Source: a virus
Lineage: Duplodnaviria > Heunggongvirae > Uroviricota > Caudoviricetes
IMG/VR virus record: IMGVR_UViG_3300021387_000074
DNA: 64,000 bases
Reading direction: 5' to 3' (one strand)
The translations under genes and the position numbers were made by a program. A model generated the notes under the pieces. The model ran no database searches, was not told the origin of the DNA, and worked only from the letters and a program-made list of their open reading frames with translations. Numbering within the stretch: the first letter of the stretch is position 1; the number at the start of each line of letters is the position of its first letter. Below, piece by piece: positions 460 through 6,613 of the stretch.

Positions 460-1974
460 ATGTTAAATACTAACTTTATCGAAAAAAATCAGTATGAAGA
501 ACAGCTTAACAATAGATGGGATTGGATTACTGAAGACATCGACGATGCAGAAACAAAACTTAACACTCAGTTAGTTCTTGAAAACTCGTATCGTTATATG
601 ATTACTGAGGGATTAATCCCTAGATCTTGGCTCGAGAACAACGTTCTTTCAGAAGACGTTCTCGAAGAAGCTCCACAGATGAGAGGCGCAGTTGGTGATT
701 ATGTTATCCCTAAGGTAATGTTCCCAATCATCAGACGTGTTATGCCAGAACTTATCGCTAACAAATTGATTTCAGTTCAGCCAATTCAGCAGCCAACTGG
801 TGTAATCTACTACATCAACTATGACTACTCTACAACAAAGGGCGAAATCAAAGCTGGCGACGAATTCTCTGCTAACCCACAGCAGACAACACCTGCTTTC
901 GCTACTTGGTATTCAAGTGAAAAAATCGGACCATTCGTTGCAACTGTTGACAGTGCTAACGTTGGTGCAGACGCAAACGTTAAATTTGTTGGTGGAAAGG
1001 CTATTACAGACTTCCTCGGAACAGATGTAACAAAATATAAGATTAAACGTTTCGAAGTTTACAATACAACTACTGGTAAAGCTATTGCTACTGTTTACGG
1101 TGCAGCAGCTGGTGCAGCAGCAAATGTAACTTACGACGGAGTAAAGGGTGAATTCACTGTTAAAGTTCCAGCTTCAGCTATGGCTAGCGGAAAAGACAAT
1201 GCATTCAAGGCTTTCTTGGTTTATGATCAGGAAGGATCAAGCTTCATTCCAGAGATGGAATTCCACATCGACCACATGAACGTTGAGACAACTGAACGTA
1301 AATTGAAGGTTAGATGGACAAAAGAAGCTGAACAGGATATGATGGCTTACCACAAGATCGACGTAGAACAGGAACTTGTAAAAGTTGCAGCAGTTCAGAC
1401 AAACTACGAAATCGACCGTGAAGTATTGAGATTCATCGATGACCACATCATCACTGAACTTTCTCAGAGCCACAACTGGACAGACGACGCAGCAACAACT
1501 GGAAACAATACTCAGGGTAACTACCTTGATAGACATCGTTGCTTGGCACAGAAGCTTTACGCAGCTTCTACAAAGGTTGCAACATTCAACCACCTTGGAC
1601 CATGTGATTGGGCTGTTTCTTCTCCAAAGATTGCAGCAGTTCTTCAGATGCTCCCAGATTGGAAAGCAGGAGAAATTGCTAATGGTAAGACAACTTACTA
1701 CAACGCAGGTTCTCTCGGAAACGGTTCTTTGGCTATCTATGTAGATCCAAACAGAACTGGTGGACAGGAAGACGAACTTACACTTGGTTACAAGTCTAAG
1801 GATTCAACATACGGAGCTGGTGTAGTTTACTCACCATATGCTAACTGGATGTCAGGAACAGTTGTTAATCCAGACAACTTCAACAACATCCGTGGTTTCT
1901 TCAACAGATATGCTTTGAGCATGGCACCAAGAGGACAGTACAACTACGCTCGTGTAACAATCAACAACATCTAA
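460..1974 (+). CDS. Major capsid protein (T4 gp23-like)
   Basis: Motifs PIIRRVMPELIANKLISVQPIQQPTGVIYY, RKLKVRWTKEAEQD, EIDREVL, GYKSKDSTYGAGVVYSPY typical of gp23; SD AGGAGG. Confidence 0.95.
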   Translation: MLNTNFIEKNQYEEQLNNRWDWITEDIDDAETKLNTQLVLENSYRYMITEGLIPRSWLENNVLSEDVLEEAPQMRGAVGDYVIPKVMFPIIRRVMPELIANKLISVQPIQQPTGVIYYINYDYSTTKGEIKAGDEFSANPQQTTPAFATWYSSEKIGPFVATVDSANVGADANVKFVGGKAITDFLGTDVTKYKIKRFEVYNTTTGKAIATVYGAAAGAAANVTYDGVKGEFTVKVPASAMASGKDNAFKAFLVYDQEGSSFIPEMEFHIDHMNVETTERKLKVRWTKEAEQDMMAYHKIDVEQELVKVAAVQTNYEIDREVLRFIDDHIITELSQSHNWTDDAATTGNNTQGNYLDRHRCLAQKLYAASTKVATFNHLGPCDWAVSSPKIAAVLQMLPDWKAGEIANGKTTYYNAGSLGNGSLAIYVDPNRTGGQEDELTLGYKSKDSTYGAGVVYSPYANWMSGTVVNPDNFNNIRGFFNRYALSMAPRGQYNYARVTINNI

Positions 1975-1995
1975 TTTTAGAAATTAGTTGATTTA

Positions 1996-2027
1996 AACCC
2001 CGTTCGAAAGAGCGGGGTTATTTTTTT
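1996..2027 (+). terminator. Intrinsic terminator of capsid gene
   Basis: AACCCCGTTC-GAAA-GAGCGGGGTT stem followed by a T7 run. Confidence 0.9.
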
Positions 2028-2034
2028 GACAAAT

Positions 2035-2065
2035 AAAAAAGGCTACCAAATTTGGTAGCCTTTTT
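2035..2065. terminator. Bidirectional terminator downstream of flagellin
   Basis: A6-GGCTACCAAA/TTTGGTAGCC-T5. Confidence 0.85.
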
Positions 2066-2110
2066 ACTTTTCTCCTTTCTATGGCGAGAACCCCTCCGAA
2101 GTCGCCGTTT

Positions 2111-2959
2111 CTATTTTAACAACGCTAATACATTTTGTGATTGTGAGTTTGCTTGACTAAGCATAGCGACAGAAGCCTGAGAAAGAACCTGCTGCTTTGT
2201 ATATTCTACCATTTCAGTAGCCATATCAGCATCACGAATTCTTGATTCTGCAGCTTGTGTGTTTTCAGCTGCTACATTAATTCCTTTCTGTGCCATCTCC
2301 ATTCTGTTCTGATAAGCACCAAGATCTGCTCTCTGCTTATTAACATTTTTCAAAGCTTCATCAAGTGTGGCAATTGTTGTATTTGCCTCATCAGGTGATG
2401 AAATAGAAATCTGATTGTCTTCACCCTGGATACCTTTCAGCCCAAGAGCAGAAGCAGTCATTGTTCCTATATATGCTCTGATATTCTGATCTGCGTTTGC
2501 ACCAACCTGGAATTGCATTACAGTATCAGAATCTTTTGAGAATCTTCCAGTTAATAAATTCATTCCGTTAAACTGTGCTGAAGAAGCAATTCTGTCAACT
2601 TCTGCTACAAGCTGAGAAACTTCTACCTGAATCTGCATTCTATCTTCATCTGAGTATACACCATTTGAAGCCTGAACTGCAAGTTCACGAATTCTCTGAA
2701 GAACATCAGTTGTTTCTGCTAGATAACCTTCTGCTACCTGAACAAAAGAAACAGCATCTCCAATGTTTCTTGAAGCCTGATTAAGACCACGAATTTGAGA
2801 TCTCATCTTTTCAGATACAGCCAAGCCAGATGCATCATCACCTGCTTTGTTAATTCTTTCACCACTTGAAAGCTTTGCCATTGAATTCTGTAAGTTTGCC
2901 GCATTAATTCCTTCTTGGCGACTAGCAAACAAACTTGCCATATTGTGATTTATTACCAT
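2111..2959 (-). CDS. flaB: Flagellin, spirochaete FlaB-type filament core protein
   Basis: MVINHN start, [70 protein letters not shown]; 282 aa with only D0/D1 domains; VEVSQL and DRIAS motifs as in Treponema FlaB. Confidence 0.97.
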
Positions 2960-2963
2960 ATAC

Positions 2964-2979
2964 TACCCCTCCTTGGGTA
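2964..2979 (-). promoter_or_regulatory. CsrA-type hairpin containing the flagellin Shine-Dalgarno
   Basis: Minus strand TACCC-AAGGAG-GGGTA: 5-bp stem with ANGGAN hexaloop, 4 nt before the ATG. Confidence 0.65.
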
Positions 2980-2986
2980 TAAAAAA

Positions 2987-3014
2987 TTATCGGCAGATTT
3001 CTCTGCCGACTTTA
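2987..3014 (-). promoter_or_regulatory. Sigma28 (FliA/SigD)-type promoter of flagellin
   Basis: Minus strand TAAA-N16-GCCGATAA; exact -35 and -10 consensus; overlaps inverted repeat TCGGCAGA/TCTGCCGA (2990-3009). Confidence 0.8.
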
Positions 3015-3015
3015 A

Positions 3016-3405
3016 TTATTCGTCCCAATCAAAATCTTCTTTGGCTTCGGACGCTCTCGAAGCTGCAGTTGCAACTCCTTTTCTTGTGCTTTCTACTGGC
3101 CCAGCAATTTCACTTGCTTTTACAATTGCGTTTTTTTGGATTCTTCTCTTGTTAGTAACAGTGTCTTTTACTAGACCTGAATCATATATAAAATAACCGT
3201 TATCTAATTCGATGTAGTTTCCTTTCATTAAAACAACATAATCATCGTCTGATATTTCTTGCCCAGTAGTTATTGCACCTACTTGCCTAACCTTTGCTAA
3301 TCCTTTATTTCCGTTTGCGCCTTTTATGGCTTTTACAGTATAAGAATCAGCAAAAAGAAGACTTGTGAATAATGCTAAAAAAGCAATCACAAAAAGTTTT
3401 TTCAT
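3016..3405 (-). CDS. Small exported protein with signal peptide
   Basis: MKKLFVIAFLALFTSLLFA-DS type I signal peptide; C-terminal TAASRASEA plus acidic tail; SD AGAGGAG. Confidence 0.75.
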   Translation of the reverse strand: MKKLFVIAFLALFTSLLFADSYTVKAIKGANGNKGLAKVRQVGAITTGQEISDDDYVVLMKGNYIELDNGYFIYDSGLVKDTVTNKRRIQKNAIVKASEIAGPVESTRKGVATAASRASEAKEDFDWDE

Positions 3406-3425
3406 TTCGAATCTCCTCTTGTGTA

Positions 3426-3433
3426 ATTAACTT
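3426..3433 (-). promoter_or_regulatory. Putative late promoter AAGTTAAT
   Basis: Exact motif 20 nt upstream of the 3405 start. Confidence 0.6.
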
Positions 3434-3435
3434 TT

Positions 3436-3972
3436 TTAAATCAAATCCTCTCTTCCAATAAATGTCAAAGCCTTTGCACGATTTTTGTGAATTATATCAT
3501 AGTTAGGATATGACAACTTGCTTGTTCCGCGGGTATGAGAATAAATCTCTGGGAAGAAATAGCATCTTGATCTAATATAGAAGAAATTCCACAAATCTAA
3601 ATCCTTGTTTTTTATGGCTCTTCCATCCTTTCCTTCTTTTCTTGCGATTGCATCCTTCAATGCCTCTGCAATACCAACGATTGGAATATCGTCATCCTTA
3701 TTTGATTTATAAACAGAACCGATGAAAACTTCTCCATTTTCACCTTTAATTGCCACCAATGTTCCGCGTGGCTTCGTTCTTTCAAGCTGAAGTCTTCCGT
3801 TTCCAACTTCCTTTCCAATGAACCCGTCGCGAATTCTCAAAGAAATGAAACCGTTGTTTCCATGTTCCTTTCTAAATTCATCAACGAACTTCTGTGCTTC
3901 ATCTCGTGCTTTATTACGAGCTTCTCTTTTCTCTGCTGCTCTCTTCTTAGCAGCTTCTTCAAATTTATTCAT
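3436..3972 (-). CDS. Hypothetical protein
   Basis: 178-aa ORF with SD AAAGGAG, in a tightly packed operon. Confidence 0.8.
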   Translation of the reverse strand: MNKFEEAAKKRAAEKREARNKARDEAQKFVDEFRKEHGNNGFISLRIRDGFIGKEVGNGRLQLERTKPRGTLVAIKGENGEVFIGSVYKSNKDDDIPIVGIAEALKDAIARKEGKDGRAIKNKDLDLWNFFYIRSRCYFFPEIYSHTRGTSKLSYPNYDIIHKNRAKALTFIGREDLI

Positions 3973-4361: not shown

Positions 4362-5681
4362 CTAAAAATTATAAACCATTACTGCATTTTTGTCAACACT
4401 TCCAACAGTTGATTGAAATCCTTCTTCGAATTTTTCCTCAGCATAAGATTTTCCAGATACACATGGTCTTGGCGCCCATTTAGACTCACATCTCTTTCCT
4501 TGCCTGAAATGGTCAAATTGTTCAACCCCAAGATTTTCTGATTGACAAAGATTTTGCAGCATCAAGACTTCTCCAACTGGAGGATTTTCGCCCCCACAGA
4601 GTTCTTCGTAGAATTTTAAAGTTTCTCTAGCTGCATCCCAAAAATTCCACTTTCTATGTTGATGGATTAATGGGTGCCTATCAAAATCTTGAAATTCTTC
4701 GTAAAATAGCATATCAGGGCCAATCATTGAATATGCGGCTTTATCACCATTCTTATATGTTCCCATACCAAATGTTGAATAGCCTTGTTCATGTTCCCAG
4801 GCCATATCTGACAATGAATTAATATAAACATTAAAATCATCAATAATTGGTGATTTTGGCTTATAAAGCCTTGTAGCGGCAACATTAAAATTGCCATTCA
4901 AAGTTCCTTCTGGGTTTATATAACCTGGAATATAAGTTCTTACCGCTCTGCTTATTCTTCTATAAACGTCTGCAGCATTAAAATTATCCAAGTTGTATTT
5001 ATTTTGATATAATACAGAGATAGTTATTTCATCTGGAAAGAAGCAATACTTATTTGTAAGTTTAAAAAGATCTTCCGTTAAAACATCATCCCAACCTTGT
5101 TTAGTTGTCCAATATGTTATAAGATCTATAGCGATATTCATATCTAAATCTCTAGCGTATTGCATACACTGAAAAGCGTTTTGGTAATCGGGGATTAATC
5201 TGCCTTGTTCTATTAGAATATCATTATCAAAAGTCTGAAAACAAAATATCAATGTAGTAAAATTATGACTTTTTAATACGTTGATAAACTCCTTAGTTAT
5301 TAAAGCAGGATGAAGCTCTATTATTTTTCTAGGAGCTTTTTCTAAATATTCAGGCATAGATTTTAGGTATTTATCAAAGTCTTCTGGCGACAAATAATTA
5401 GGGGTTCCGCCGCCAAAATTAACCATTTCTATTGCCTGATTTTTTAGAATACTGTCATACTCTTTGAAGAGATGTGGCATATAGTCAAAATAGAATTTTT
5501 GAACTTCTTCTTCTGTATGATTGCTTTTTGGACAACCTTTATGCATACAGTAGCCACAATTGGCTTGTGTTTTACAGAATGGATTATGTAGATATACGAC
5601 CGTTGGTCTAACGTTTTTTTCCCACATTTTTCTATAACTAACGATGTCTACTACATTTCCACTAAATTCTAACATTGCCAC
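4362..5681 (-). CDS. HemN/HemW-like radical SAM protein
   Basis: YLHNPFCKTQANCGYC (CX5CX2C), FGGGTPNYL, ELHP, FQTFD, IAIDLI; start could be the ATG at 5675. Confidence 0.85.
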   Translation of the reverse strand: MAMLEFSGNVVDIVSYRKMWEKNVRPTVVYLHNPFCKTQANCGYCMHKGCPKSNHTEEEVQKFYFDYMPHLFKEYDSILKNQAIEMVNFGGGTPNYLSPEDFDKYLKSMPEYLEKAPRKIIELHPALITKEFINVLKSHNFTTLIFCFQTFDNDILIEQGRLIPDYQNAFQCMQYARDLDMNIAIDLITYWTTKQGWDDVLTEDLFKLTNKYCFFPDEITISVLYQNKYNLDNFNAADVYRRISRAVRTYIPGYINPEGTLNGNFNVAATRLYKPKSPIIDDFNVYINSLSDMAWEHEQGYSTFGMGTYKNGDKAAYSMIGPDMLFYEEFQDFDRHPLIHQHRKWNFWDAARETLKFYEELCGGENPPVGEVLMLQNLCQSENLGVEQFDHFRQGKRCESKWAPRPCVSGKSYAEEKFEEGFQSTVGSVDKNAVMVYNF

Positions 5682-5881
5682 AACCCTGGTGGATTTTCCA
5701 CCTCATAATCATCAATTTCGTGTTTTCTCTTTGTTTTGATATTGATAAAGTTATTTGGCAATAGCTCAACTTTGTCTATCACCAAATCTCCATCAATTTC
5801 TACATAACTTTGTGCTTTGCCTTGATGAGCCCAATCTTGTAAAATATTACATAACTGGGCTACTGTCATATACTCACCCAT
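5669..5881 (-). CDS. Small hypothetical protein
   Basis: 70-aa ORF overlapping both neighbours by a few nucleotides. Confidence 0.65.
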   Translation of the reverse strand: MGEYMTVAQLCNILQDWAHQGKAQSYVEIDGDLVIDKVELLPNNFINIKTKRKHEIDDYEVENPPGLWQC

Positions 5882-6371
5882 TAGCTGTTCCTGTGGAGGC
5901 CCCGTAGCCTTTATTACCGCGCTCTGTTTCTCTATCTTCCCAATTTGCTTCTTCGGTAAATGGAATAAGAGTAGGAATTAACTGAGCAATTTTGGAACCT
6001 TTTTTAATAACAATTTTCTTAAACATATTGTTATTTCTAATTACAACTCCAACATTTCCAGTATATTCGATATCTACAACGCCTGCTTTTGTTGAAAGCT
6101 TGAGCTTGTAAGCGTTTCCACTTGTGTCTTTTATAAGAGCATAAGCGTTCCAACCTGCTGGTGGTGTCATCTGAATAGCCAAGCCAGTCTTAATAAGCAC
6201 TGTCTGATGCGCTCTAATTACCAAATCTTCATCAGAAAACAAATCAAAGCCTGCATCTGTTTCATGTGCTTTTTTTGGTATAATAGCGGTTGGTGAAAGC
6301 TTCTTCCATGCTACTTTTACTACTGTCTTTTTAGGTGTTTTTGGTTTTTTTTGATTACTTGTTTCTGCCAT
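5874..6371 (-). CDS. dut: Trimeric dUTPase
   Basis: Motifs AGFDL, DTSG (normally RSG), GVVDIEYTG, IAQLI, RGNKGYGAST. Confidence 0.9.
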   Translation of the reverse strand: MAETSNQKKPKTPKKTVVKVAWKKLSPTAIIPKKAHETDAGFDLFSDEDLVIRAHQTVLIKTGLAIQMTPPAGWNAYALIKDTSGNAYKLKLSTKAGVVDIEYTGNVGVVIRNNNMFKKIVIKKGSKIAQLIPTLIPFTEEANWEDRETERGNKGYGASTGTANG

Positions 6372-6562
6372 TACTCTGATGCCTCTTTAATACCTTTTTC
6401 GTTAAAAATCTTTCTAAGAGAGTCGATTGCTTCTCCCATCATTTTAGAAGCCTCGTCTACTGTTGGTGCTTCTGTTGTAACATCCATCTGGCCAGCACCT
6501 TTTGAGGTCTGTTTAAAATTAAGTCTGGCTCTTGTATTAGGAATATTTGCTGTATCTTCCAT
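6371..6562 (-). CDS. Small hypothetical protein
   Basis: 63-aa ORF, SD AAAGGAG, first gene after a sigma70 promoter. Confidence 0.75.
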   Translation of the reverse strand: MEDTANIPNTRARLNFKQTSKGAGQMDVTTEAPTVDEASKMMGEAIDSLRKIFNEKGIKEASE

Positions 6563-6584: not shown

Positions 6585-6613
6585 ATTATACTAGAGCCAA
6601 TAATTTATGTCAA
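6585..6613 (-). promoter_or_regulatory. Consensus sigma70 (early) promoter
   Basis: Minus strand TTGACA-N17-TATAAT, exact consensus. Confidence 0.9.

Follow-up and report, generated by a model that had tools for sequence, protein, structure and literature searches.

The closest described phage system is FR-phi, in which a flagellin gene of an Enterobacter prophage, fliC_P, reportedly runs under the FliA/sigma-28 programme of the host (bioRxiv 10.1101/2023.11.30.569447) and its product FliC_P is reported to remodel the flagellar filament (PMC13418256). As described there, FR-phi is a temperate siphophage of enterobacteria, hosts with external flagella; its flagellin has variable D2/D3 domains, and it encodes an RNA-guided repressor of host fliC. 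The locus described here shares with FR-phi a phage-encoded, full-length flagellin with conserved D0/D1 domains, a predicted tie to the host sigma-28 programme, and a proposed filament remodelling. It differs in belonging to a T4-like phage, in encoding a spirochete FlaB made of D0/D1 only, in carrying a CsrA-type site on its leader, and in having FlaA homologs in related phages. No FR-phi-type TldR lies beside the flagellin gene, and there is no TnpB-like gene among the proteins scanned in the window, by which we mean the whole 64-kb stretch of DNA analysed. The phage locus would work like FR-phi but is not a member.

On bacterial chromosomes, flagellin output is controlled by CsrA and FliW in circuits described for hag of Bacillus subtilis (PMC6529632), flaB of Borrelia burgdorferi (PMC12327847), and flaA of Campylobacter jejuni (PMC4894983). 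In the published outline, flagellin in the cytoplasm sets CsrA free, and CsrA in turn shuts flagellin leaders (PMC12327847). Like the phage gene, these have a CANGGANG hexaloop over the Shine-Dalgarno (SD) sequence and a conserved Asn in the flagellin. Whereas the reported circuits are chromosomal autoregulation, usually with two GGA hairpins, the phage gene has one site, a leader of 21 nt, and CsrA and FliW that the host would supply. The csrA-tldR-fliC loci of Clostridia also place CsrA on a stem-loop of the flagellin 5' UTR in isoform control, but they are host-encoded, have their own csrA and TldR, and belong to neither a phage nor a spirochete, as far as the published account describes them (PMC13418256).

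Among spirochetes, FlaB3 of Treponema denticola is reported to form the unsheathed distal part of the filament, and FlaA is described as Sec-exported and coating the filament core (PMC13439194). The phage flagellin resembles T. denticola FlaB3 (PDB 10PP) in its short central loop and in the same four glycosylation positions (PMC13439194). The reported location of T. denticola flaB3 is a sigma-70 operon (PMC9481697), whereas the phage gene has its own sigma-28 motif. It is also unlike the gut Treponema counterpart of FlaB3 (host flaB paralog A), which has no sigma-28 motif within 300 nt in 78/78 loci and from which the phage flagellin forms a separate lineage.

We consider it probable that the DNA upstream of the phage gene controls a compact flagellin cassette: host sigma-28 would transcribe it, host CsrA/FliW would hold its output down, and its FlaB3-like subunits would join the periplasmic filament. 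This would extend phage flagellar remodelling from temperate enterobacterial phages to apparently lytic spirochete jumbo phages, and it suggests a phage gene plugged into the host sigma-28 and CsrA-FliW circuit. Spirochete flagella are hidden in the periplasm, so that immune escape and simple receptor masking are not obvious benefits. A first-pass annotation of the DNA knew of no described phage system of this kind. That is too broad, as prophage fliC_P under host FliA/sigma-28 has been published; the spirochete, apparently lytic, CsrA-gated form is the part for which we found no precedent. A literature search, mostly of main texts readable without subscription, returned no phage-borne spirochete flagellin, no lytic-phage flagellin, and no CsrA site on a phage flagellin.

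Results and Discussion

Phage context and likely host

The window is 64 kb of T4-like phage DNA that also encodes tail tube, baseplate, and prohead protease genes, together with NrdD and SbcCD-like genes. The flagellin gene (2111..2959, minus strand) is convergent with the gene for a T4-like major capsid protein, Gp23 (460..1974, plus strand; E 2e-55), which sets the phage context, and a sequence scan places a bidirectional intrinsic terminator between the two (2036..2065). Because the flagellin gene adjoins that for Gp23 in the window clade, its product could be imagined as a virion part, a filament on the capsid. This is extremely unlikely: the two genes lie on opposite strands with the bidirectional terminator between them, other phages carry flagellin far from the capsid gene, and the host flagellar control signals described below would be pointless for such a protein.

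Upstream of the flagellin gene, the minus strand encodes a 129-aa protein with a signal-peptide-like start (3016..3405). The protein looks secreted and has a conserved C-terminal motif; it matched no Pfam or PHROG family, and the ESM Atlas gave no explanation beyond a FecR-like assignment at 0.77. Homologs occur near the flagellin in locus L012 and without flagellin in L017, and presence or absence of the gene is independent of flagellin.

Kinship of the flagellin-bearing records to the window phage is not established, since the window capsid protein had no match in five such records and Gp23 was matched in 1/5. The PF00589 tyrosine integrase was found in 0/5 related records (two of them complete). 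One related record is labelled a provirus, but the 37 kb of it that were read look phage-like.

The best 80 genome matches of the flagellin are 72-77% identical and mostly labelled Treponema, and T. denticola FlaB3 (PDB 10PP) is the closest among solved structures (385.8 bits, vs 375 and 368 for 286-aa entries). Among GenBank phages, the best match is 44% identical over the full length, and all 12 matches are in unannotated records. From the Treponema labels and the FlaB3 match we infer that the host is a gut Treponema, an assignment that protein similarity makes likely. The likely hosts have the machinery that the first-pass annotation had invoked: each of five candidate Treponema genomes has three flaB genes, a FliA over the cut-off, and FliW, and csrA directly follows fliW in the one Treponema locus read. 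A search of the phage DNA for fliW and csrA, which the same annotation had proposed, found neither in the 64-kb window nor in 4/4 related jumbo records, so host proteins must be used.

A sigma-28-type promoter that contains a hairpin

The first-pass annotation had described a sigma-28 promoter and a CsrA-type hairpin in front of the flagellin gene, and the promoter is exactly as described. On the minus strand, the -35 element TAAA (3011..3014), which also precedes host flaB paralog B in 5/5 genomes, is followed after a 16-nt spacer by the -10 element GCCGATAA (2987..2994). A tract of T6 (2986-2981) and A2980 lie between the -10 box and the SD stem, and the distance to the -10 box places the predicted transcription start at 2980, giving a 21-nt leader. 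These elements fit the sigma-28 consensus TAAA-N15/16-GCCGATAA, and the promoter pattern has a single match in 64 kb, with 0/100 shuffles giving any. For comparison, the T. denticola flaB2 promoter is reported as TTAA plus CCGATAA (PMC9481697).

Both the sigma-28 and the CsrA-type signals are conserved and flagellin-specific when 18 phage flagellin loci are compared with 228 control phage genes. The 18 loci are the window, four close relatives, 12 other spirochete-type flagellins, and a single flagellin not of the spirochete type; the set omits the truncated L013 as well as L006, L009, L010, and L016, which are duplicates. A relaxed sigma-28 pattern, written after the loci had been inspected, lies directly before the flagellin at 9/18 loci and ahead of an inserted endonuclease gene at two more. 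Only 1/228 control genes has it, and that one is the inserted endonuclease gene. The earlier idea that the gene is expressed only while the host flagellar programme is on fits these signals, but the seven loci (7/18) without a sigma-28 motif count against it. Across five whole jumbo records, the strict pattern has three matches vs seven for a reversed control, the flagellin match being the only one of the three upstream of a gene. A DNA scan with the 5' part of the promoter gave eight matches, namely three known loci and five unrelated ones.

The first-pass annotation missed a terminator-like hairpin inside the promoter (2981..3010, minus strand), with 9 bp, a GAAA loop, and then AA-T6. The stop codon of the gene upstream immediately precedes it, its arms (3010-2989) are the promoter spacer and the -10 box, and its T tract ends at the predicted start site. 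None of 200 shuffles is as stable (z -5.5), and L141 keeps the hairpin with a G-U change. We take it to be a likely, leaky intrinsic terminator at the end of the operon upstream. This minus-strand operon, which ends at the flagellin promoter, would be driven by two perfect sigma-70 promoters (TTGACA-17-TATAAT; 6585-6613 and 4368-4396).

Contigs from RNA libraries contain capsid and flagellin pieces of the phage. In run X1, the flagellin piece (142 nt) has one mismatch, and the capsid pieces are identical. Runs X3 and X4, which hold identical contigs and are counted once, have pieces over the whole flagellin gene of a related strain; one of these bridges the spacer hairpin, so insulation is at best leaky. 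In two other runs, contigs end shortly before the hairpin, at 3022 and 3029, and run X15 has an 800-base insertion near the flagellin 3' end. Because these data are assembled contigs, no start or level is readable from them and uncovered stretches prove nothing, and DNA carry-over is possible.

With the -10 box forming the 3' arm of a strong hairpin, the sigma-28 match might be a mere by-product of a terminator; the flagellin gene would then be reached by read-through at the end of a phage sigma-70 operon, and only its CsrA site would matter. The perfect sigma-70 sites upstream (at 4396 and 6613), the bridging RNA contig, and the loci that lack the motif would agree with this, which we nevertheless judge very unlikely. 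In L001, L002, L005, L007, and host paralog B (5/5), the same -35/-10 pair encloses AT-rich spacers with no palindrome, so the hairpin does not account for the promoter. The motif also stays where the upstream gene has been lost (L141) or an endonuclease gene has been inserted behind it (L015, L008).

A CsrA-type hairpin over the Shine-Dalgarno sequence

The leader elements lie exactly where the first-pass annotation had placed them. The hairpin (2964..2979, minus strand) has the stem arms TACCC (2979-2975) and GGGTA (2968-2964) and presents the SD sequence in a C-AAGGAG-G hexaloop (AAGGAG, 2974-2969), upstream of the ATG at 2959. It is the predicted minimum-energy fold (-6.4 kcal/mol). Its stability alone is unremarkable (z -1.0; 35/200 shuffles fold as well), so its significance rests on conservation. 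The CsrA consensus CANGGANG, as given in PMC4894983, occurs within 70 nt upstream of the start at 18/18 phage flagellin loci vs 0/228 control genes, and a stem of at least 4 bp surrounds it at 12/18 vs 1/228; at the other six of the 18, the GGA is flanked by only weak stems. Covariation of the stem, proposed earlier as a check, is present: across 12 leaders, 78% of cells are paired and there are 17 double changes, which is reached in 0/500 shuffles and is above all slid controls. The structure used was the fold of the window itself and the rows share ancestry, so the shuffle count is not a probability. Host CsrA would be expected to bind here.

The window clade has one ANGGA in 70 nt and no second GGA hairpin of the kind a CsrA dimer would use. 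Two hairpin-like GGA sites are present in L003, L007, L165, and L166, and in host paralog B, whose leader is about 160 nt long, vs 21 nt in the phage. Host paralog A, whose protein is nearest to that of the phage, has CANGGANG in 78/78 loci and a sigma-28 motif within 300 nt in 0/78; as paralog B lies upstream of it, the two may have the B promoter in common. As far as its sequence tells, the phage gene combines a coding sequence like that of paralog A with a sigma-28 motif of its own and a one-site leader cut to 21 nt. One-site and two-site leaders, and alleles with and without the promoter, make up a natural test set for flagellin isoform choice.

Two further RNA features were seen. In the host loci L037-L116, flaB paralog A is preceded over about 200 nt (e.g., L047:1300-1500) by a conserved multi-stem leader, in which the fixed words GGTCTGAAAC and GGCGCA alternate with varying stems and are followed by a hairpin with a CATGA-type loop. 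It is present in nearly all of 80 Treponema loci, has no Rfam match at gathering level in the eight host loci tested, and is a candidate for an undescribed cis-regulatory RNA. Past the flagellin stop codon in the window, a small hairpin with a CGGA loop (2083-2106) and a further AAGGAG just behind it are possible extra CsrA-type sites of the 3' UTR. Rfam gave nothing above gathering in window 1900-3600 and nothing at E 0.001 in four phage loci.

An old phage lineage of FlaB3-like flagellins

The gene encodes an intact FlaB3-like core flagellin (D0+D1) of 282 aa, which belongs to a phage-specific lineage. Purifying selection spans the whole protein in codon comparisons: dN/dS is 0.05-0.14 in 7/9 phage pairs; the two that involve endonuclease-linked alleles have values of 0.19 and 0.32. 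Among phage copies, N-D1 is the most conserved region (80% identity). Residues S115, S126, T137, and T/S168 are kept in 11/11 phage copies, and these four positions match glycosylation sites reported for FlaB3 (S115/S126/T137/T167-type; PMC13439194). Q88, R91, E92, and R219 are invariant, and D106 is present in 10/11 copies. The lateral-contact residue R240 is V or I in 6/11 copies. Variation between near-identical phage alleles is concentrated in a swapped surface-loop tract, codons 155-189 (2393..2497, minus strand), where 34/39 differences between the window and L140 fall.

In an unrooted 50-row tree, the phage proteins lie outside host paralog A (97/96 branch) and outside paralogs B plus C (100/100). 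They are not nested in the host FlaB3 clade, with no phage row on the paralog A side of the 97/96 branch, and the 14 phage rows do not form a supported single group (43/0), L165 being the cause. The tree holds 26/80 host A rows, omits L011, and uses L004 as an open C-terminal ORF only; the distant L011 flagellin and the frameshifted L004 reading had given long branches in an initial tree. The GC3 of the flagellin gene is 0.23, against 0.23-0.37 in neighbouring phage genes and 0.35-0.52 in 6/7 host copies. Its phage-like GC3 and its place outside the host clades mark the gene as an old resident and not a fresh capture.

It is therefore highly improbable, and largely refuted, that the gene was taken neutrally and recently from a host together with its signals, or that the locus is an assembly chimera. 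The patchy presence of the cassette among relatives would suit a capture, as would the copy in L004 (6001-6848), which is 87% identical to that of the window and has a 1-base frameshift at codon 44 that reflects either a pseudogene or a sequencing error. A neutral newcomer would not, however, have dN/dS far below 1, the base composition of its phage neighbours, a position outside every sampled host paralog clade, or a leader so much shorter than that of host paralog B. Against a chimera, the same context recurs in the independent contigs L140, L141, and L143 and in run X15.

Homologs of FlaA point to filament building. Pfam matches to FlaA (PF04620) lie beside the flagellin or in the same record at L003, L007, and L012, with weaker likeness at L004 and L013. 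A search of five related records found FlaA in 3/5; none was found in the 64-kb window. Since FlaA is Sec-exported and coats the core, its presence fits the building of a filament and not a cytoplasmic sponge. A profile of the phage FlaA had no match in 3/4 records searched, those three being 6-70% complete. The phage FlaA-like family (L003:7501-8331, L007:6961-7773, L012:8705-9538, L013:721-1563, L151:1270-2103) consists of proteins of 270-280 aa with signal peptides and 24-59% mutual identity, shorter than host FlaA.

The subunit might instead be exported and assembled into a filament that is faulty or stalled, so that motility stops, which would save energy or block further phage dependent on flagella or motility. 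The phage copies do form a separate lineage that is more divergent (69% mean identity) than host paralog A (85%, seven sequences), with the R240 substitutions and an endonuclease-linked allele (L015) that is only 63% identical. We regard such interference as rather unlikely, given that the polymer contacts and glycosylation sites are conserved, that a FlaA partner suggests building and not breaking, and that the published prophage flagellin is reported to improve motility (PMC13418256).

A predicted FliW contact and the FliW-CsrA partner switch

The conserved C-terminal segment of 17 residues that the first-pass annotation had pointed out as a FliW-binding region is present in the phage protein. 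Its invariant Asn is N233 (AAEN), kept in 11 phage and 7 host sequences, while N228 varies. N233 of 282 lies 49 residues from the C terminus, as does N255 in the 304-aa Hag; this Asn is numbered N255 in Hag and N237 in T. pallidum (PMC12327847). A complex model of the flagellin with FliW (T. bryantii as stand-in) scores 0.84 vs 0.00 for the best of three controls and predicts a contact at codons 228-240 (2240..2278, minus strand) centred on Asn233 (2261-2263). Model runs agree in at least 65% of contacts, with a partner pLDDT of at least 84. The mark used is reached by 116/157 solved complexes and 2/215 mismatched pairs, and a pass may reflect likeness to known pairs. By this prediction, which accords with the binding proposed earlier, the phage flagellin can probably enter the FliW-CsrA partner switch.

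The first-pass annotation went further and suggested that the protein could soak up FliW and free CsrA, reprogramming host translation. As a purpose, this would make the protein a cytoplasmic decoy, with the freed CsrA repressing host translation for the benefit of the phage. Besides the invariant N233 and its predicted contact, such a role would draw on the published behaviour of the circuit, which is described as about 1:1:1 and hypersensitive to flagellin level in B. subtilis (PMC6529632), and in which cytoplasmic FlaB of Borrelia is reported to sequester FliW and release CsrA (PMC12327847). The rest of the evidence makes a decoy quite unlikely. Selection is not focused on the FliW site, which has 70% identity vs 80% in N-D1, and host copies keep the same site, so its retention is the default for any flagellin. 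The residues for filament contact and glycosylation, which serve a periplasmic function, are kept, and the Sec-exported FlaA of related phages has no role in a cytoplasmic sponge. A CsrA site on the phage's own leader would make the release of CsrA self-limiting and shut the decoy off.

Because the phage leader has a CsrA site, the loop would also set an upper limit on the phage protein. Such a limit is reported to prevent disorder in the cytoplasm of B. subtilis (PMC6529632), and by analogy avoiding such disorder is a plausible reason for the phage to keep it.

A different use of the same switch would be replacement of host subunits by titration. Phage flagellin would bind FliW, and the freed CsrA would shut the two-site host flaB leaders more tightly than the one-site phage leader. 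With growing numbers of phage genomes, phage subunits would then take over the exported stream from those of the host. A jumbo phage that is apparently lytic would in this way rebuild the distal spirochete filament through the host homeostat alone, and CsrA would do here what TldR does for FR-phi. We give this a minor but appreciable chance; L003, L007, L165, and L166 keep two sites, which counts against its generality.

We favour a course in which the phage gene is tied into host flagellin homeostasis. Host FliA would start transcription at about 2980 when the late flagellar programme is on, and the overlapping hairpin would likely stop most transcripts from upstream shortly before they reach the flagellin start. 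The flagellin would be translated while FliW holds CsrA, and thus only while the cell exports flagellin. The subunits would be exported, likely glycosylated, and added at the filament tip. Binding of FliW and release of CsrA would then be the host's normal feedback acting on a phage gene and preventing the build-up of unexported flagellin. The weakest step concerns purpose, for which we favour the sustaining or altering of the filament and motility during a long infection, probably in the distal unsheathed part.

An optional, mobile cassette and other phage flagellins

The flagellin cassette is optional and mobile, judging from related loci. Downstream DNA of 2.5 kb or more is available for 12 of the 23 capsid-anchored loci, and 2/12 carry flagellin. 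In L017, which lacks the cassette, the -35 element and the 5' hairpin arm are joined to the downstream terminator region at a shared AGAAA, a junction most simply read as a deletion.

An HNH homing-endonuclease gene (phrog_655) lies between promoter and flagellin in L015/L016 and in L008-L010. The two versions (L015:4733-5575 and L008:5119-5979) are 36% identical and belong to two different phage lineages, and in both the linked flagellin allele is divergent. The new leader of these HNH-linked flagellins again has two GGA sites, the CsrA-type sites being rebuilt in the end of the inserted gene. Homing endonucleases at the flagellin in two phage lineages hint that the gene matters to these phages. 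Between the old leader and the HNH gene, L008 has a non-coding insert of about 330 nt (4790-5118) with two GGTCTTTAGCC hairpins and no Rfam match, which we take to resemble IS200/IS605 ends or an intron remnant.

Flagellins that are not of the Treponema type occur in the viral records L011, L165, L167-L174, L176, L184, L186, and L200. By eye, L167, L170, L171, and L174 have a short csrA-like ORF directly upstream of the flagellin, and L168, L173, L176, L186, and L200 look like one further phage group. Directly downstream of the phage flagellin in L166 lies an intact TnpB (5160-6524); it was considered as a TldR and rejected, as its D-E-D residues are kept.
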